A stretch of 24,463 bases of DNA. It comes from an uncultured Chitinophagaceae bacterium. GTDB taxonomy: Bacteria > Planctomycetota > Planctomycetia > Pirellulales > UBA1268. Location: contig CAZIQV010000002.1 in assembly GCA_964541275.1 (NCBI GenBank), positions 1-24,463 of the forward strand, given 5' to 3'. Position 1 is the first letter of the stretch, and every line of letters starts with the position of its first letter. Both the position numbers and the translations under genes were made by a program. Shown here piece by piece: positions 9,712-22,710 of this stretch. The notes under the pieces are model-generated. The model was given only the letters and a program-made list of their open reading frames with translations, had not been told where the DNA came from and did no database searches.

Positions 9712-12129
9712 GTGCGGCGACTATCCCTTGAGTCTCTCAATCCGAGCCAGCGGCAGGCGGCCACGCATGTCGAAGGCCCGCTGTTGGTGCTCGCCGGCCC
9801 CGGCAGCGGCAAGACCCGGGTGGTGACCCATCGGGTGGCCCATCTGATCACCGCGGGCGTGCCGGCCCACCAGATTGCCGCCCTGACGTTCACCAACAAA
9901 GCCGCCGACGAGATGCGGCGGCGGGTGACCGATCTCGTCGGCCCCCAGCCGGTCGAGATGGGCACCTTCCATCGGTTTGCCGCCCGGCTGCTGCGGTCGC
10001 AGGCCCGGCTGGTGGGCCTGACCAGCGACTATTCAATTCTCGACACCGACGACTCGCAGGCAGTCCTCAAGCGGGCGGCGAAAAAGCTCGGGCTGTCACT
10101 GACCCACACGCCGATCGGCCGGATCGCCGGCACGATCAGCCGGGCGAAGAACGATCTGGTCACCCCCGAAACCTTTGAGCCCCGATGGGGCCGGCCGGCC
10201 GACGAGGTCGTCACTCGCCTCTGGCCGGTCTACCAAGAGATGCTCCTCGAGGCCAACTCGGTCGACTTCGACGACCTGCTCGGGCACATCGCCCGGCTGC
10301 TCCTCGACAATCCGGATCTCCGCCGCCAGCTCGACGCCCGCTATCGCTGGCTGCTGGTCGACGAATACCAGGACACCAACGCGGTGCAGTACTGTATTTT
10401 GCGGGGACTCTCGCTCGACCATCAGAACCTCGCTGTCACCGGCGATCCCGACCAGGCGATCTATGGCTGGCGAGGGGCGAGCATCCGCAACATCCTCGAA
10501 TTTGAGCGGGACTATCCCGCGGCAGCGGTCGTCACCCTTGAGCAGAACTATCGCAGCACGGCCAACATCCTCGGCACCGCCGACCGCGTGATCGCCAACA
10601 ACAGCCGCCGCAAGCCGAAGCGGCTGGTGACGGCCGCCGAGCCGGGGCCCCAGGTTCGCATCGTCCTCGACAGCACCAGCCATGAGGAGGCCGACCGCAT
10701 TGCCGACGAGATCGCCGCCGCGGTCGCGGCCGGTCGCCGGCAGCCCCGCGACTTCTGCATCCTGTTTCGCACCAACGCCCTGTCGCGGTCGCTCGAGGTG
10801 GCCCTTCGGAATCGGCAGCTGCCCTACCAACTGATCCGAGGGCTGGAGTTTTTCAAGCGGCGGGAGGTCCGCGATGTCGTCGCCTGGTTGCGGCTGCTGA
10901 AAAATCCCCGCGATGACGAGGCCCTGCTGCGGATCGTCAACGTGCCGCCCCGGGGCATCGGCAAGCAGTCGCTCGACCGGCTCGCCGCCTGGGCCGAGCA
11001 GCAGGGGCTGTCGAGGCTCGAGGCCACCCGGCAGGCGGCTGCCGTGCCGGGGCTTTCCAAGCGGGCCGTGAAGGCCTATGCGCAGTTCGGCAATCTGGTC
11101 GATTCGCTCCAGCAGGTGCAGCGGCGGACCGGCAGTGGAGTCGCCCCGCTCGTCGAGGCGATCCTCGAACGGACCGGCTATCGCGAACTCCTCGCCGCCG
11201 AACAGGAGGACGAGGGCGACGAGCGGCTGGCCAACGTCGAGGAACTCGTCACGGCCGCCCGCCAGGTCGATGAATCATTCACGGCCGTCCTGCCCGACGA
11301 TGATCCCCTCGGCCAGTTTCTCGAACAGACCGCCCTCGTCGCCGACACCGACATCTGGGACCCCTCCGGCAACCAGATCGCGCTGATGACGTTCCACGCC
11401 TGCAAGGGGCTCGAGTTTCCGGTCGTCTACATGATTGCCGTCGAGGATGGCATCCTGCCCCATGAGCGGAGCCTCGACCACGACGACCAGCTTGAAGAGG
11501 AGCGGCGGCTCGTCTTTGTCGGCATCACCCGCGGGCAGCAGGAGGTGCATGCCAGCGCCGCCCGGATTCGCGATTATCGCGGCAGCCGCCGGATTTCCCC
11601 GCCGAGCATCTTTCTGACCGAGATGCTCGGTGCGGAGACCGTGCTGACCGGGCCGGAGGCACCGGCGATCGGCAGTTCCGGCATCACGGCCGCCGATGCC
11701 GACTGGCACGTCGATGCGGAAGACCCCTTTGCCGACTGCTTCGACCCCGGCCCCGACAGCATCGCCGACGAGGCGGCAGCCCCGGCCGACCAGCCGGTTG
11801 CCCGCCTGGAACGGGCGGACGGACTGGTGCTTGAAGTCGACGCGGCCCACGACGCGGGGGCCGGCGAAAGCCCGCGGCCGCAGCCGGCCCGTTCCCGAAG
11901 CTCGCGGTCCCCCGGCTTGGCGATGAAGCGGGCGTCGGAACTCGGGGCGGCCCCTCAGGCCCCTCCCTTGGTGGCGGGCGAGCGGATTCATCACGACAGC
12001 TACGGAGCGGGCACGCTCGAGCGAATCAGCGGTCACGGGCCCCGCGCTATCGGAGTGGTCAAGTTCGACGGCGCGAGCCGAACCCGCAGCTTCGTCCTCG
12101 CCCACGGCGGGTTACAGCGGCTCCAGTAG
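9712..12129 (+). CDS. uvrD: UvrD/PcrA superfamily 1A DNA helicase with C-terminal Tudor-like domain
   Basis: Motifs LAGPGSGKT, DEYQDTN, GDPDQAIYGWRGA, LEQNYRS, FRTN, TFHACKGLEF, EERRLVFVGITR; C-terminal GERIHHDSYGAGT...VVKF. Start is GTG 9712 (alternative TTG 9685). Confidence 0.97.
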   Translation: MRRLSLESLNPSQRQAATHVEGPLLVLAGPGSGKTRVVTHRVAHLITAGVPAHQIAALTFTNKAADEMRRRVTDLVGPQPVEMGTFHRFAARLLRSQARLVGLTSDYSILDTDDSQAVLKRAAKKLGLSLTHTPIGRIAGTISRAKNDLVTPETFEPRWGRPADEVVTRLWPVYQEMLLEANSVDFDDLLGHIARLLLDNPDLRRQLDARYRWLLVDEYQDTNAVQYCILRGLSLDHQNLAVTGDPDQAIYGWRGASIRNILEFERDYPAAAVVTLEQNYRSTANILGTADRVIANNSRRKPKRLVTAAEPGPQVRIVLDSTSHEEADRIADEIAAAVAAGRRQPRDFCILFRTNALSRSLEVALRNRQLPYQLIRGLEFFKRREVRDVVAWLRLLKNPRDDEALLRIVNVPPRGIGKQSLDRLAAWAEQQGLSRLEATRQAAAVPGLSKRAVKAYAQFGNLVDSLQQVQRRTGSGVAPLVEAILERTGYRELLAAEQEDEGDERLANVEELVTAARQVDESFTAVLPDDDPLGQFLEQTALVADTDIWDPSGNQIALMTFHACKGLEFPVVYMIAVEDGILPHERSLDHDDQLEEERRLVFVGITRGQQEVHASAARIRDYRGSRRISPPSIFLTEMLGAETVLTGPEAPAIGSSGITAADADWHVDAEDPFADCFDPGPDSIADEAAAPADQPVARLERADGLVLEVDAAHDAGAGESPRPQPARSRSSRSPGLAMKRASELGAAPQAPPLVAGERIHHDSYGAGTLERISGHGPRAIGVVKFDGASRTRSFVLAHGGLQRLQ

Positions 12130-17382: not shown

Positions 17383-17817
17383 CCTGCCCGGGTTCGCCGG
17401 CTCGATCAATCCGACAACGACCATGCTCATGAAGCCGTAGAGGGTCGAGCCAAGCACGCCCCAGGCGGCAACCGCCAGCCAGAAATAGTCCCGCAGCCAG
17501 ACCCGCAGCGGCGGCTCCGGGCTTTTGGGGACCTTGTGTTGCACCGGTCCGCTGCGGTCCGACTGCGCCTCCATATCGCTGCGAAACCGATCCCAGTGCG
17601 CTTGAATGGCGGGGGCGTCAAGCTCGGCCAGCCAGCCGGACCGCAGCGTCCACACCACCCCCGGTGGCAGCACCAGCAGCATGATCCAGCCCGCCAACAG
17701 GCCGGCCTTCACGAGGCCGACCCGGCGGCCGGCTGCAGGACTTTTTGTTTGGTTGCTGCCGGTCATGCCAGTGGGATTGGGGGAAGCGGGCGGCGGAAGG
17801 TCGCCGTCGGTTCCCAT
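17302..17817 (-). CDS. Hypothetical two-TM membrane protein
   Basis: Two hydrophobic helices flanking a soluble segment (WDRFRSDMEAQS...GPVQHKVPKSPEPP...LRDYF). Start uncertain (17817 or 17766). Confidence 0.7.
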   Translation of the reverse strand: MGTDGDLPPPASPNPTGMTGSNQTKSPAAGRRVGLVKAGLLAGWIMLLVLPPGVVWTLRSGWLAELDAPAIQAHWDRFRSDMEAQSDRSGPVQHKVPKSPEPPLRVWLRDYFWLAVAAWGVLGSTLYGFMSMVVVGLIEPANPGRLPAEQKAGGDDDTDEQDQGDSEHTEQ

Positions 17818-18030
17818 CCTACCCAGATCGGCACCGCCGACCGGTCCGCAGAAAATCGCGGCGGTGCGACAAAAAATTCCTCTCGTTCAGCACCACCGGG
17901 ACTGGTACCGTCCCGCCGCAGCCGCTTGGCTTCTGTTCCAGCCGTGCCCCCTGTGATCGCCACCGCCGTGTTATCCAAGCCCTCTCCGTGGAAGAAGCCC
18001 TCCGTGGCCCGCGTCCGCGGGTCTGGGCGA

Positions 18031-19191
18031 TTGCCAGGGCAGTTTCACCAAGCCGAAAACCCGCGAGGGTTTTCAGGGCTTTCGGCCGCCGTCGGGTCGT
18101 GCCCGCGGTCACTGAGCCGGCGGCAGGCGTGCGTTCGCTACCCGCTGTTGCTGCTGGCGGTGCTGGTCTGCGGCTGGCCGACCGCCGCCTGCGGACAGAG
18201 CGGCTGGCTGCCGACGAGCTGGTTTACGAAGCCGAAGGTCGACCCTCGGGCGATGTATCCGCTGTCGGAGCGGGATGGCCCCTGGTTGGTGCTCGCTTCG
18301 ACCTTTCGTGGCGACGGTGCCCGCGAGGACGCCCGACGACTCGTTCAGGAACTCCGGGGCCGATTTCACCTGCGAGCCTTCACCCACGAGCAGGCGTTCG
18401 ATTTCACCGGGGCCCAGCGAGGCCTGGGGCTCAATCCGGACGGCAGTCCGAAACGCATGCGGTATGCGAACTCGCGGCAGATTCTCGAGGTCGCCGTGAT
18501 GGTCGGCGACTTCGCCTCCTGCGATGACAGCCGGGCCCAGAAGACGCTGACGAAGATCAAGACATTGCAGCCGGAGGCGCTGACCGGAGAGCGGGGCAAG
18601 AGCCGCGCGTTCGCAGATTTCCGGCGGCTGATTGGCCTCGACAAGCAGGCGGGCGGCGGACCGATGCGGCTGGCATTCATGATCCCCAATCCTCTGTTGC
18701 CGGCGGACTATTTCAATCAGCCGCAGCTCGACGAGTTTGTCGTCGGGATCAACGCCGACGTCGAGCACAGCCTGCTCGATTGCCCCGGCCGGTACAGCGT
18801 GCGGGTCGCCACCTTCAGCGGCGCCGGCACCTTCACCGATCAGGAAGCGGCGGCCGATCCGGATGCCGCCTTTGAAAGCCGGCTCGTCAAGGCTGCCGAG
18901 AAGGCCCATCGACTCACCGCCGCTCTGCGGCGGCAGGGCTGGCAGGCCTGGGAGTTTCACGACCGCGAGTCAAGCGTCGTCTGTGTCGGCAGTCTCGGCC
19001 AGCTGACGATCGAACAGCAGAACGGCACCCAGCAGCCGCATCCGGAACTCGTGCGGATCACAAAAGCCCTCGGCCCCGACCCCGAGAAGCTGGCCGCCGG
19101 CACGATTCTGCCGAGGCGGATCGAGGGCATTCTGCTCGACGTCGAACCCCGTCCGGTCGATGTGCCCCGGCTGCCGGTCGGCCGCCGCTAG
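18031..19191 (+). CDS. Secreted protein with two SPOR-like repeats
   Basis: Signal-peptide-like RYPLLLLAVLVCGWPTAACG. Repeat 1: GPWLVLASTF...ARRLVQELRG...VAVMVGDF. Repeat 2: GRYSVRVATF...AHRLTAALRRQGWQAW...VVCVGS. Start uncertain (TTG 18031, CTG 18112 or TTG 18148). Confidence 0.75.
   Translation: MPGQFHQAENPRGFSGLSAAVGSCPRSLSRRQACVRYPLLLLAVLVCGWPTAACGQSGWLPTSWFTKPKVDPRAMYPLSERDGPWLVLASTFRGDGAREDARRLVQELRGRFHLRAFTHEQAFDFTGAQRGLGLNPDGSPKRMRYANSRQILEVAVMVGDFASCDDSRAQKTLTKIKTLQPEALTGERGKSRAFADFRRLIGLDKQAGGGPMRLAFMIPNPLLPADYFNQPQLDEFVVGINADVEHSLLDCPGRYSVRVATFSGAGTFTDQEAAADPDAAFESRLVKAAEKAHRLTAALRRQGWQAWEFHDRESSVVCVGSLGQLTIEQQNGTQQPHPELVRITKALGPDPEKLAAGTILPRRIEGILLDVEPRPVDVPRLPVGRR
18055..18080. 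repeat. Spaced palindrome copy A: GAAAAC-ccgcgagg-GTTTTC-AGGGCT
   Basis: Read directly; as RNA it would form a GAAAACCC/GGGTTTTC stem with a GCGA tetraloop. Confidence 0.75.
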
Positions 19192-19266
19192 CTGTTGGTT
19201 GAGAAAGCGATCCCTGACCCCGAGCCCGCGAATGCGGGCGAACGCCAGTCCCCGTGGGCAACCCCC

Positions 19267-19292
19267 GAAAACGCCGCGGGGTTTTCAGGGCT
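19267..19292. repeat. Spaced palindrome copy B: GAAAAC-gccgcggg-GTTTTC-AGGGCT
   Basis: Same arms, spacer length and AGGGCT tail as copy A; lies between the SPOR-like gene and rdgB. Confidence 0.75.
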
Positions 19293-19479
19293 GCCGAGCG
19301 GCCCATCCCGCGGCGGCAGCCTCCCGCCGGGTCCCTCCGGCACCCGTTTCCGACGTGGTGAAAATGACCAGTGCACCATCGCTGTCGGCGACCACCGCAG
19401 CGGCCGTCTGGAGCCTGTGCCGACACAACCGCGTCGCGGCGGAGGAACGTCGCGATTCCTCTTTGCCCGCGAAACAGCC

Positions 19480-20103
19480 ATGACCCCGCCCGCCGCCCCG
19501 ATCCTCGTCCTCGGCACCACCAACGCCGGCAAGCGTGCCGAACTTTCCGGACTGCTCGAGCCGTACGGGATCAGCTGCCGCTCGCTCGCCGACTTCCCCG
19601 CCGCGATCGACGTCGCCGAAACCGGTCAGACCTTTGCCGAGAATGCCGCCCTGAAGGCGAGCCAGCAGGCCCGTCAGCTCGGCGAGTGGGTCCTCGGCGA
19701 GGACAGCGGACTGGTCGTCGATGCGCTCGACGGCCGTCCGGGAATCTATTCCGCCCGGTTCTCCGGTCCAGATGCCACCGCGGCGTCCAACAACGCCCTT
19801 TTGCTGGAGAAGCTCGCCGGCGTCCCTGCGGCGGCCCGCACGGCCCACTATGCCTGCCACGCCGCCCTCGCCGATCCGACGGGGGCGATCCGGGCTGCCA
19901 GTTCCGCCCGCTGTCAGGGCACGATCGTCGAGACGGCCCGCGGGACCGGCGGGTTTGGCTATGACCCGTACTTCCTGGTTGCCGAATACCACCGAACCTT
20001 TGGCGAGTTGGCCGCGGCGGTCAAGGCGCTGATCAGCCATCGGGGGCGGGCGATCCGGCCGTTGCTGCCGACCATTGCCCGCCTGCTTTGCAACCGCGGC
20101 TGA
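19480..20103 (+). CDS. rdgB: Non-canonical purine NTP pyrophosphatase (RdgB/HAM1)
   Basis: GTTNAGK, ETGQTFAENAALKA, EDSGLVVDALDGRPGIYSARF, GFGYDPYF, ISHRGRA. ATG 19480. Confidence 0.96.
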   Translation: MTPPAAPILVLGTTNAGKRAELSGLLEPYGISCRSLADFPAAIDVAETGQTFAENAALKASQQARQLGEWVLGEDSGLVVDALDGRPGIYSARFSGPDATAASNNALLLEKLAGVPAAARTAHYACHAALADPTGAIRAASSARCQGTIVETARGTGGFGYDPYFLVAEYHRTFGELAAAVKALISHRGRAIRPLLPTIARLLCNRG

Positions 20104-20149
20104 GCCCGTCAGCCGGCCCGGTCTGCCGCCGGCGGTTGTGCGGCACCGT

Positions 20150-21244
20150 TCAGGCAGCCTCGCTGAGCCGGCGGGCGAGCCAGTTCCGAATCGTCTGAAG
20201 GACTCGCGGGGTGCCGTCGATTGTCCCGACGAGATTGGCCAGCGGGGCGGCATACCGGTCGAGACCGTCGAGGAAGCCGCGAACATCGCCGACGGTGACG
20301 TCCTCGAGGTGGACGAAGTCACCGCAGCCCATCGCCCGCAGGAAGTGACTGTTCATCGATTGCTCGCCATGGGCCCGTTCCGGCAGCACCAGCAGCGGCT
20401 TGCCGAGGTGGATCGCCTCGCCGATGAGCTGGTTGCCGGCTGCCGACACGACCGCCCGGCAGCCGGCGAGATCCTCGGCGAACCGCCGGTCATCGATCGG
20501 CTGAAAGGACACCGGCCCGATCGGATCGCGACTGCCGAGGCCGTAGACCTTTACCGGCAGGCCGCACTGGGCGAGGGTCTCAATCGCGGAAAATGGCGTG
20601 TGTCGGCGGAGGTAGCTGAGCAGGTAGCCGCCGGACGTTGGCTCAGCCCGGACGATCTCGCGACGGAGCAGGGGACCAACTTGCACGACATGCTCCCAGC
20701 CTGGCCGCAGGGGTGGCCGGAAGAAGGCCGACACCATCGTCTCGGCGGCATTGCTGACATACATCCAGACGGCATGGCTCATCAGCCAGGCGTTCCACCG
20801 CAGGGTCCAGGGCAAAGCGTCGAGTTCGTAGGCGAGGAGGAAGTGCTGATGGTCGATGCTCAGCAGCGGCACCCGCAGTCGGGCCGCCGCCCGCGGCAAC
20901 GCCGGCTCAAAGTCGGTGATCGCCAGCGTGACATGAAAGGCCTCAAAGTCGGTGAGCAGGCGATCGACCAGCGGCCCGAGTTGACGAGCCTGATACTCCA
21001 ATCCGCAGCGGATCGATCGCAGCACATCGAGCCGGCCGCCGCTGTACTGGAAGACGATGCCTGGAATCTCAATGACAGCGACACGCGGATGGCCGACAGC
21101 GAATCGCCGCTGCAGGAACCGGTAGCCGTCGTCGGAACTGTAGACCCGGATGTCGTGATCGCGTTCCAGATGCTCAATCAGCGTTGCGATCCGGGTGGCA
21201 TGGCCCCGGCCCTCGCCGCACAAACTGATCGCGATCGTCGCCAT
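20150..21244 (-). CDS. GT-B glycosyltransferase, MJ1255/VC2487 (GT28-related) family
   Basis: N-terminal CGEGRGHATR, ITDFEP, SIDHQH, VGPLLR, SAAGNQLIGEAIHLGKPLLVLP...EQSMN. ATG 21244. Confidence 0.88.
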   Translation of the reverse strand: MATIAISLCGEGRGHATRIATLIEHLERDHDIRVYSSDDGYRFLQRRFAVGHPRVAVIEIPGIVFQYSGGRLDVLRSIRCGLEYQARQLGPLVDRLLTDFEAFHVTLAITDFEPALPRAAARLRVPLLSIDHQHFLLAYELDALPWTLRWNAWLMSHAVWMYVSNAAETMVSAFFRPPLRPGWEHVVQVGPLLRREIVRAEPTSGGYLLSYLRRHTPFSAIETLAQCGLPVKVYGLGSRDPIGPVSFQPIDDRRFAEDLAGCRAVVSAAGNQLIGEAIHLGKPLLVLPERAHGEQSMNSHFLRAMGCGDFVHLEDVTVGDVRGFLDGLDRYAAPLANLVGTIDGTPRVLQTIRNWLARRLSEAA

Positions 21245-21382
21245 GCGTTCCCGCCAGCTCAATGATGTTGGTGGCAGTCGTGGAAAGGGGTGGCCAAGCA
21301 ACCCTTGCTGTCGGTGGAAAAAGCCGTCGACGGCCCTTGTCGGCGGGGGGCGGGCGAATGATAGTCCACCTGATCAACCCCG

Positions 21383-21410
21383 TAAAACGCCGAGGATTTT
21401 TGGGGCTGCC
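21383..21410. repeat. Spaced palindrome copy C (degenerate): TAAAAC-gccgagga-TTTTTG-GGGCTGCC
   Basis: Shares AAAACGCCG, the T-tract and the GGGCTGCC tail with copy B; lies in the divergent GT/hypothetical spacer. Confidence 0.6.
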
Positions 21411-21447
21411 CAGCGCCGCCGCTTGCGGCGGCGGACTTCATCCACCG

Positions 21448-21458
21448 TCTGCTACGAT
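21448..21458 (+). promoter_or_regulatory. Candidate extended -10 promoter element (TG-c-TACGAT)
   Basis: TCTGCTACGATC, identical to 17228-17239; upstream of the exported protein gene starting at 21613. Confidence 0.5.
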
Positions 21459-21530
21459 CACCGCAAATTATTTTGAACCAAAGCGGCAACGGTTGCCGAG
21501 GCCGATGTCGGCGGCAGTTGGCCAGCCAAC

Positions 21531-21552
21531 GGAAAACTCACATAAATTTTCC
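21531..21552. repeat. Spaced palindrome copy D: GGAAAA-ctcacataaa-TTTTCC
   Basis: Exact GAAAA-N10-TTTTC with an extra outer G/C pair; lies between the candidate promoter and the start codon. It lacks the GGGCT tail. Confidence 0.6.
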
Positions 21553-21612: not shown

Positions 21613-22710
21613 TTGAAACTATCGCCCGTCGCTGCCGGGCTGCTGGTGTTCCTGCTCGTTCAGGGACCGCCGCGGCTGGGGGCAGCCCCGAACTCGGCAG
21701 CTGCCGCCCGGCCCGAGCGGCTGATCCGGCAGCTCTCCCACGGCAGTCTCGCCGCCCGTGACGCGGCGGTGGCGGGATTGCTCGACTGCGGGCCGGCCGC
21801 GTTGCCGGCGATCGAGCGAGCCCTGCCGACAGCCGGTGGCGAAGCGGCCTTTCGCCTGCCGCTGATCGCCGCGGCCATCGCGGTGGCGGAGACCAACCGG
21901 CGGCTTGAGACGGCCCCTGCTGACACCCCGCCGGGAACGGCCGCCGGGCCACTGCGGGTGTCGCTCGAACGCGTTGATCGCCTCGGCGATGCCGGCCTGC
22001 GGCTGCAGGTGCGGCTCCGCTGGCGAGCCGATCTGCAGCCGGTCCTCCTCCGGCTGCCGCTCGCCTCGGTGGTCGCCGAGGGGCCGCTCGGTGAAGCGGT
22101 GCCGGTCCGCAGCCGCCGGGGTTCTGTCGAGCCGCTGCTGACTGCCGGCTGCCACTGGGTCGACCTGCCGCTGCGGCTCGGCCCGCCGCCGGCCGGGCTC
22201 ACGGCGGTCGACAGCCTGCGGGGCACGGTCGAATGCTGGCTCCCGGGATTCGATCACCGGTTCACGCTGCCGCTTGCTGACGCGAGCGGGAAGCCGTCAA
22301 CCGCCGCGGTGACGAGCCTCGGCGGCGTCGACGTTGAATGCGAAGCCTGGTCGCTCGAACCTCCCGACCCGAGTCGGCCGCGGGCTCGCCTCAACATCCG
22401 CCTGTCAGCGCGGTTTTCCGAGCCCTCTGAAGCGTTCGCCTCGCACCGGGACTGGCTGGCCGATCGGCAGCCCCAGCTGCTGCTTCCCGACGGCACGCTG
22501 GTGCGGGCAGCCAGCCATCGCGTCGTCGGGAGAAATCGCCAGGGCCTGACGGTCGAGGGCAGCTTCCCCCTTCCCGAATCCCGGCCGGGAGGCGGGCTCC
22601 GGGTCGCCTGGCGGCTGCCGCTGGGGGTCAGCCGGCTCCGGTTTGATTTTCGACTGCCTGGCTTCGCGTTTGCCCCCGGTGGTGCCGGGCCGGAGACCGG
22701 GGACGATTGA
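21613..22710 (+). CDS. Exported hypothetical protein with N-terminal HEAT-like helices and beta-rich C-terminal domains
   Basis: GGGAGG RBS 8 nt before TTG 21613. Signal-like MKLSPVAAGLLVFLLVQG, HEAT-like LIRQLSHGSLAARDAAVAGLLDCGPAALPAIERAL. Alternative ATG at 21505. Confidence 0.7.
   Translation: MKLSPVAAGLLVFLLVQGPPRLGAAPNSAAAARPERLIRQLSHGSLAARDAAVAGLLDCGPAALPAIERALPTAGGEAAFRLPLIAAAIAVAETNRRLETAPADTPPGTAAGPLRVSLERVDRLGDAGLRLQVRLRWRADLQPVLLRLPLASVVAEGPLGEAVPVRSRRGSVEPLLTAGCHWVDLPLRLGPPPAGLTAVDSLRGTVECWLPGFDHRFTLPLADASGKPSTAAVTSLGGVDVECEAWSLEPPDPSRPRARLNIRLSARFSEPSEAFASHRDWLADRQPQLLLPDGTLVRAASHRVVGRNRQGLTVEGSFPLPESRPGGGLRVAWRLPLGVSRLRFDFRLPGFAFAPGGAGPETGDD

Follow-up and report, generated by a model that had tools for sequence, protein, structure and literature searches.

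A dispersed 143-nt repeat of a planctomycete lineage, probably a transposable element of the miniature inverted-repeat kind, behind a clustered GAAAA...TTTTC palindrome

The stretch of planctomycete DNA analysed here (contig CAZIQV010000002.1, positions 1 to 24,463; hereafter the window, 24,463 nt with a G+C content of 68.6%) carries a spaced palindrome, GAAAA-N10-TTTTC, which a preliminary description had proposed as a candidate operator or short repeat family. This palindrome is very probably the hairpin of a non-coding transposable element of the miniature inverted-repeat type (MITE) that has spread in a planctomycete lineage and would have been moved by an IS5-type transposase. The family is previously undescribed and of a well-known kind, the named families having been compared by description only. 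What it represents is ordinary selfish DNA rather than a site bound by a regulator.

Structure and dispersal of the element

In every well-kept copy the element, aligned with its flanks, measures 143 nt, which is too short for a transposase. It begins with CTGTCCGTGGAAAAAG and ends in ...CTCTATCCACAGTCTG (abridged form ...CCACAGTCTG), and the two ends form an imperfect but consistent terminal inverted repeat: CTGTCCGTGGAAAAAG and CAGACTGTGGATAGAG, the reverse complement of the 3' end, agree at 11 of 16 positions in the consensus. Most of the conserved positions in this repeat pair in eight of ten copies, and 61% of all cells pair. Between the ends lie three successive palindromes, namely GCCCGC-GAAT-GCGGGC, a long central hairpin and CGCCGCA-TCC-TGCGGCG. 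The central hairpin has in the consensus the form GGCAACCCCCGAAAAC-loop-GTTTTCGGGGTTGCC with a 15-bp stem, and it is this part of the element that had been noticed as the motif.

Three copies of the element lie in the window, together with a site of the same pattern that does not belong to the family:

17982 to 18127, plus strand: MITE copy A, profile match with E=2e-28 (17982-18125), central palindrome at 18055-18074
19188 to 19191, plus strand: left target-site copy of B, CTAG, which contains the TAG stop codon of the upstream gene; copy B begins right after it
19192 to 19336, plus strand: MITE copy B, profile match with E=3e-31 (19192-19329), central palindrome at 19267-19286
21308 to 21451, plus strand: MITE copy D, profile match with E=1.5e-37, degenerate central palindrome at 21383-21402
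21532 to 21551, no strand assigned: copy C, outside the family, single-copy in four metagenomes (at >=80% likeness) and without a profile match

Within the window the exact pattern is limited, as had been reported, to 18055-18074, 19267-19286 and 21532-21551, and the degenerate copy at 21383-21402 is also confirmed, as it surfaces (21382/21383) when two mismatches are allowed. The frequency is indeed above chance, with three matches against a mean of 0.01 and none of 100 dinucleotide-preserving shuffles reaching three. These are, however, not independent occurrences, and the excess arises because A, B and D share common descent as copies of one element. On the plus strand the three have the common pattern CCG-[G/T]AAAAC...TTTT[C/T][A/G]GGGCT. 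B and D can be aligned over about 85 nt (19234-19316 with 21350-21434) with a score of 62, compared with 21 +/- 2 in shuffles, while A aligns weakly with D over about 100 nt and has a 28-nt core in common with B. Copy A is the most decayed, with 65% identity to the family consensus; B has 78% and a degenerate 3' end, and D, which stands in the divergent spacer between a glycosyltransferase gene and an exported-protein gene, has 81%. The idea of a short repeat family was thus correct in that a dispersed repeat exists, but its unit is the element of about 143 nt and the 20-nt site is only the central palindrome. Among the members, A and B alone show N10, and N9 is the spacing found in most of the others.

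Dispersal was followed in Logan contigs from four metagenomes in which this locus is present, matched to 19190-19340 at >=80% likeness. The core of copy B (19224-19284) was found with other flanks in 13-28 contigs per run, and its summed depth was 97-305, against 7-9 for the unique flanks. Exact breaks at 19224 or 19284 are seen in many of these contigs, as would be expected if the assembler met a repeat there, and their loose ends yield a consensus that reads ...TGTCCGTGGAAAAAGCCATCCATGGCCCTT upstream and CGGGGTTGCCGATCGCCGCAGCCTGCGGCG... downstream. Copy D is partly repeated in the metagenomes, with matches of other contigs that reach 21454 or begin at 21315, and the decayed copy A is single-copy at >=80% likeness.

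The way to further copies was to translate the consensus in six frames and to search the protein collection for open reading frames (ORFs) called through copies, which led to the loci L155-L166. A profile search built from the full-length copies gave 11 distinct copies in six regions and on both strands. Eight of them lie outside the window, in five regions (two each in L155, L157 and L165, one each in L161 and L166), and these are 83-92% identical to the consensus. Several loci hold two or three copies within a few kb, and the three window copies in 3.4 kb are therefore in line with the family, local density being high at other loci too. Neither the rest of the window nor the 5.6 kb beyond it (L001) nor the syntenic relatives contained a further copy. 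The two young copies of L155 (L155a and L155b), in another planctomycete region, are 3.3 kb apart:

L155, 6536 to 6678: young MITE copy
L155, 10020 to 10162: young MITE copy

One of the copies of L157, at 10389-10531, lies inside a 207-aa ORF with an IS256-type (Transposase_mut) domain (10001-10624) and is a MITE inserted in a fragment of an unrelated insertion sequence (IS).

Pattern scans added no further members. A scan of the genome collection with GAAAACN{6,10}GTTTTCAGGGCT gave, among the matches listed, single scattered ones in unrelated taxa and in about the number expected by chance; it was uninformative because the pattern had been built on A and B, whose sequences depart from that of the family (consensus ...GTTTTCGGGG). 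A stricter pattern of the A and B type found in the metagenomes only the same locus (L138, L140) and chance matches. In viral contigs the consensus hairpin retrieved only an unrelated palindrome and the left end of the element gave no match. The viral palindrome, GAAGCCCCCGAAAAC-N6-GTTTTCGGGGGCTTC, is shared by seven IMG/VR contigs (L148-L154) beside the conserved stretch caaatccctatctctccgccata; it has no relation to the MITE, and by its look it is a conserved region, either a terminator or an attachment site, that adjoins the end of an RNA gene.

Target sites, empty sites and insertion in frame

Perfect 4-nt repeats flank three copies, with CTAA at L155a, CTAG at L157a and CCAG at L161, and the flanks of L166 (CGAG and CTAG) agree at three of four positions. 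In the window B has kept its left CTAG, and D stands between CTTG (21304-21307) and CTAC (21452-21455), each one change from CTAG. In older copies the duplications have decayed, and the flanks of A and the right end of B are no longer recognisable. It is known that IS5 duplicates 4 bp at a YTAR target (PMC5009759). The duplications CTAA and CTAG agree with this target, as does the left CTAG of B, and CCAG is one base off. The likeness to IS5 of Escherichia coli (IS5 family, IS5 group) lies in this 4-bp YTAR duplication; the element differs in that neither a transposase gene nor a parent IS was found for it and in that CCAG departs from YTAR. A possible likeness between the ends of IS5 and those of the element is confined to a GAA.AAG stretch. 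A TA duplication of the IS630/Tc1 type was also considered and rejected, given that the bases outside the TA are repeated in all three perfect cases and that one duplication is CCAG.

The 4-bp YTAR duplications point to an IS5-type transposase, supplied in trans, as the probable agent that moved the element. The transposase of such an IS would cut and paste the element, inserting it at C/T-T-A-A/G tetranucleotides and duplicating them. In a genome of 69% G+C these tetranucleotides are rare and found mostly at stop codons and in spacers, which would explain why the copies adjoin the ends and starts of genes.

The comparison with relatives that have kept the gene order (protein identity 84% in L005, 82% in L006-L008 and 74% in L009-L011) shows what the insertions have done to this region. 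The spacer before rdgB is 288 nt long in the window and about 55 nt in the relatives, the spacer of the divergent pair is 368 nt against 118-154 nt, and about 140 nt after the conserved GTG at 17968 are missing in the relatives. Neither the motif nor the longer repeat has a copy in L005-L011. Since the relatives' spacers are much shorter and the copies are missing there, A, B and D lie in lineage-specific extra DNA. In L005 there is an unoccupied CTAG at the same stop codon that carries the left flank of B in the window. In a similar way L155a stands directly after the CTAA that ends an NTP-transferase gene (...CTATCTCTAA), where the relative L167 runs on without the element, and in L167 and L168 no copy was found in the 21 kb where L155 has two. 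Copies are thus dispersed and differ in presence and absence between related genomes. Empty-site alleles, with the flanks joined across a single CTAG or CTAA, were not seen in the assembled metagenome contigs.

The element and its duplication together make 147 nt, that is, 49 codons. Copy A lies four codons after the conserved GTG (17968), where the frame is kept and the n-region of the signal peptide becomes about 47 codons longer. In the same manner L155b has brought about 44 residues into a conserved 296-aa protein; the orthologue of this protein in L167 is without them. All three window copies can be read without a stop in the frame of the gene that follows. The consensus has two stop codons in its six frames compared with 5.3 +/- 1.75 in dinucleotide shuffles (P = 0.048), a marginal depletion. 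A conserved peptide encoded by the element was considered and rejected: the frame in use, relative to the element, varies between the copies, and the peptides are of low complexity. This in-frame behaviour is an observation and not evidence of function.

Comparable behaviour is known from the Rickettsia palindromic elements (RPE), palindromic repeats of about 100-150 nt found in frame inside protein-coding genes (PMC3733652). The likeness, seen in copy A and L155b, is in the insertion into intact ORFs and concerns behaviour only, membership by sequence not being expected, and RPE differ from the present element in phylum and in sequence. RPE are not known to carry terminal inverted repeats or target duplications like those described here. 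The family might be a planctomycete counterpart of RPE that makes new peptide segments, or else the central hairpin and the promoter-like site of copy D might have been co-opted to end or drive the transcription of the neighbours. This is considered unlikely, and what speaks for the RPE counterpart is that the insert is exactly 49 codons, poor in stops and tolerated in frame both in a signal peptide and in a conserved membrane-type protein.

Comparison with known repeats and other explanations

Bacterial MITEs are described as elements of 70-300 bp with terminal inverted repeats of 15-30 bp and no coding capacity, and in its size, ends, duplications, lack of coding capacity and patchy distribution the element conforms to this definition (PMC3733652). 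With NEMIS/Correia of Neisseria, RUP of Streptococcus pneumoniae and Nezha of cyanobacteria it has in common the size, the terminal repeats, a target duplication, the lack of a transposase ORF, many dispersed copies, a patchy lineage-specific distribution and a mostly intergenic location. It differs from them by the imperfect terminal repeats (11/16) and by its phylum, Planctomycetota, and a literature search found no paper pairing MITEs with planctomycete taxa. Correia and Nezha duplicate TA, whereas the element described here duplicates 4 bp.

Several observations weigh against the assignment to MITEs. The terminal repeats are imperfect, and in the window A has no recognisable duplication and B no recognisable right end. 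A perfect duplication is kept in only three of the nine scored copies, and CCAG, which is one of them, is off YTAR. No autonomous parent IS with matching ends was seen in about 285 kb of loci, the genome collections not having been searched with the ends, so that the transposase family would follow from the target duplication alone. Past the junction of L155 and L167 the downstream sequence is too diverged for a clean two-sided empty site. Moreover, the copy number is a summed depth of metagenome contigs, and some of the copies could belong to related organisms that co-occur.

The preliminary description favoured an operator for a dimeric regulator. In the form weighed here, a dimeric transcription factor that binds GAAAAC-N8-GTTTTC would co-regulate the lipoprotein-like gene, rdgB and the glycosyltransferase/exported-protein pair. 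The half-sites are symmetric, three copies lie upstream of plus-strand genes within 3.5 kb and the exact pattern is far above chance, yet a conserved operator is refuted because the relatives have no copies at the orthologous sites. The phylogenetic footprinting that had been suggested as a check found the motif missing in all three sets of syntenic relatives, where the spacers are also shorter; conservation upstream of the orthologous genes, in L005-L011, is therefore not observed. In addition, the supposed sites are parts of homologous 143-nt elements. These recur, in either orientation, in many position-independent copies at unrelated loci, some of them within coding regions; most members have N9, and the half-sites of D are degraded. 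An operator of this kind is accordingly most unlikely. To explain the three same-orientation copies in 3.4 kb, with none in the other ~27 kb of the contig, one could also suppose that a fragment of one spacer was copied to two neighbouring spacers by recombination and without transposition. This local segmental duplication is the least probable of the explanations weighed here, as five unrelated regions and many metagenome contigs have full-length copies that share their ends, young copies carry target duplications, and two or three copies within a few kb are seen at other loci too; furthermore, the window copies (65-81%) are closer to the consensus than a local-copy model predicts.

REP-like hairpins (repetitive extragenic palindromes) had been named as the alternative to an operator, and this came close. 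Such REPs are 20-40 nt long, carry GTAG or CGTC as a tag and have neither terminal repeats nor duplications; their movement depends on REP-associated tyrosine transposases, RAYTs (PMC3733652). With REPs, bacterial interspersed mosaic elements (BIMEs) and REPINs the element shares the dispersed, extragenic, hairpin-forming palindromes, and its central hairpin of about 38 nt exists in many copies. The size, the tag, the lack of repeats and duplications and the RAYT association of REPs are all absent from it: the unit is 143 nt, its terminal inverted repeats and 4-bp target duplications are those of a MITE, no GTAG or CGTC stands at the end of the palindrome in the consensus, and no RAYT gene, that is, no IS200/IS605-like tyrosine/HUH transposase, was seen in any locus examined. 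A REP or REPIN moved by a RAYT is consequently very unlikely. Correia and ERIC-type repeats have been reported to act in transcripts. It is conceivable, and compatible with a MITE origin, that the hairpin is likewise an exapted module, which would end transcripts, mark a site of processing or affect the stability of the mRNA, and that it has been selected at the three sites. The layout of A-run, stem and T-run resembles a bidirectional terminator, the palindrome of copy B stands 76 nt past a stop codon, the folding of whole elements is somewhat better than that of shuffles (A, z = -2.2; D, z = -2.5), and a promoter-like site on the minus strand of D faces the glycosyltransferase gene. Against a functional RNA it must be said that the T-run is inside the stem and not after it, and that the window hairpins are decayed and not unusually stable (core z from -0.2 to -2.1). 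Rfam gave no match overlapping the copies even at E<=1. The covariation analysis, which had been suggested in order to separate an RNA hairpin from a DNA operator, found nothing significant in any helix (10 copies; 27 of 500 shuffles reach the observed pairing), and the element thus has neither a curated model nor covariation to mark it as a known structured RNA. This role is improbable.

The promoter-like site mentioned above, TTTACG-17-TATCAT, resembles a sigma-70 site and lies at 21358-21386 on the minus strand; the family consensus holds a weaker version, TATCGT. Copy D might supply or disturb the promoter of the glycosyltransferase gene. The RNA contigs found were few, short and on the lipoprotein-like gene only, too sparse for transcript ends.

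Neighbouring sequences and meaning of the family

The genes around the copies are the following:

17944 to 19191, plus strand: exported/lipoprotein-like gene, called start at 17944, conserved GTG at 17968, no Pfam domain
19480 to 20103, plus strand: rdgB (Ham1 family), from gene calls on identical metagenome contigs and Pfam
20150 to 21244, minus strand: family-1 glycosyltransferase, from gene calls on identical metagenome contigs and Pfam
21613 to 22710, plus strand: exported protein with a TTG start at 21613, from gene calls on identical metagenome contigs and Pfam

The positions of these genes had been given correctly, but the description of the first of them as SPOR-like is unsupported, as Pfam finds no domain in the protein. 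The protein is widespread in planctomycetes and has a signal peptide of the lipoprotein type; its homologues measure about 360 aa, compared with the 415 aa called here. The homologues begin where the window reads ...SLSRR..., and in the relatives the first residue of the protein lies about 55 residues further on. With a CTG at 18112 as the start the signal peptide would be canonical, and the starts at 17944 and 17968 are both upstream of the MITE insert. The DNA of the window is also present in ENA and JGI metagenome assemblies and in a GOS contig, and the homologues of its genes are labelled as metagenome-assembled genomes (MAGs) of Planctomycetia.

Copy C had been counted as the third member of the set. 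Its spacer is AT-rich, the shared flanks are absent, it is single-copy and the profile does not match it, so it has to be removed from the family. It extends to GGAAAA-N10-TTTTCC (21531-21552) and forms a weak hairpin (z = -0.84), and the exported-protein gene begins, with its TTG, 62 nt downstream. It overlaps a -10-like CATAAA, and the relatives show TCACACAAT at a comparable place. Copy C may be a piece of the promoter or operator of the exported-protein gene, or a chance palindrome in an AT-richer spacer. Both copy C and the stretch after B were tried as more decayed copies of the element and rejected, the likeness not being above that of shuffles. This stretch between B and rdgB (19337-19479, about 140 nt) is missing in the relatives, single-copy and unlike the MITE, and it contains a terminator-like hairpin at 19433-19456 followed by TCCTCTTTGC. 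Between D and C the palindrome GGCAACGGTTGCC at 21485-21497 is identical to what the outer arms of the MITE hairpin would form if nothing lay between them. The bases after it (21490-21517) scored 24 against the right half of the MITE, compared with 16 +/- 2.4, which is not significant, and 21485-21517 may be what is left of a fourth copy whose centre has been deleted.

Conserved non-coding blocks, CCCATCCTACCCAGAT, AAAATTCCTCTCGTT and GACTGGTACCGTCCC, are found at 17813-17828, 17873-17887 and 17900-17914, between a divergent 171-aa gene and the lipoprotein-like gene, and are kept in relatives of 74-84% protein identity. From their conservation these blocks qualify as a genuine phylogenetic footprint and as a better candidate for an operator or promoter than GAAAA-N10-TTTTC. 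Elsewhere in the window, at 1486-1566 on the minus strand, there is a weak Rfam match to the eukaryotic pRNA (31.5 bits, the gathering score being 34), which is almost certainly a chance match in G+C-rich DNA.

The recognition of the element removes a false regulatory lead from the annotation and accounts for three lineage-specific spacer expansions, as well as for the ORFs called through these regions, such as the 415-aa call of the lipoprotein-like gene. The 302-aa cluster members P0137 and P0139 have the length of the ORF that runs through B into rdgB (19195-20103) and may be another overextended call. The consensus can be used for repeat masking, as a strain marker and for the improvement of MAG assemblies, in which contigs break at the element. 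The analysis adds a probable MITE family for Planctomycetota. A 4-bp YTAR-type target would make stop codons the preferred landing sites in a high-G+C genome, and the footprint of 147 nt permits survival in frame inside genes.

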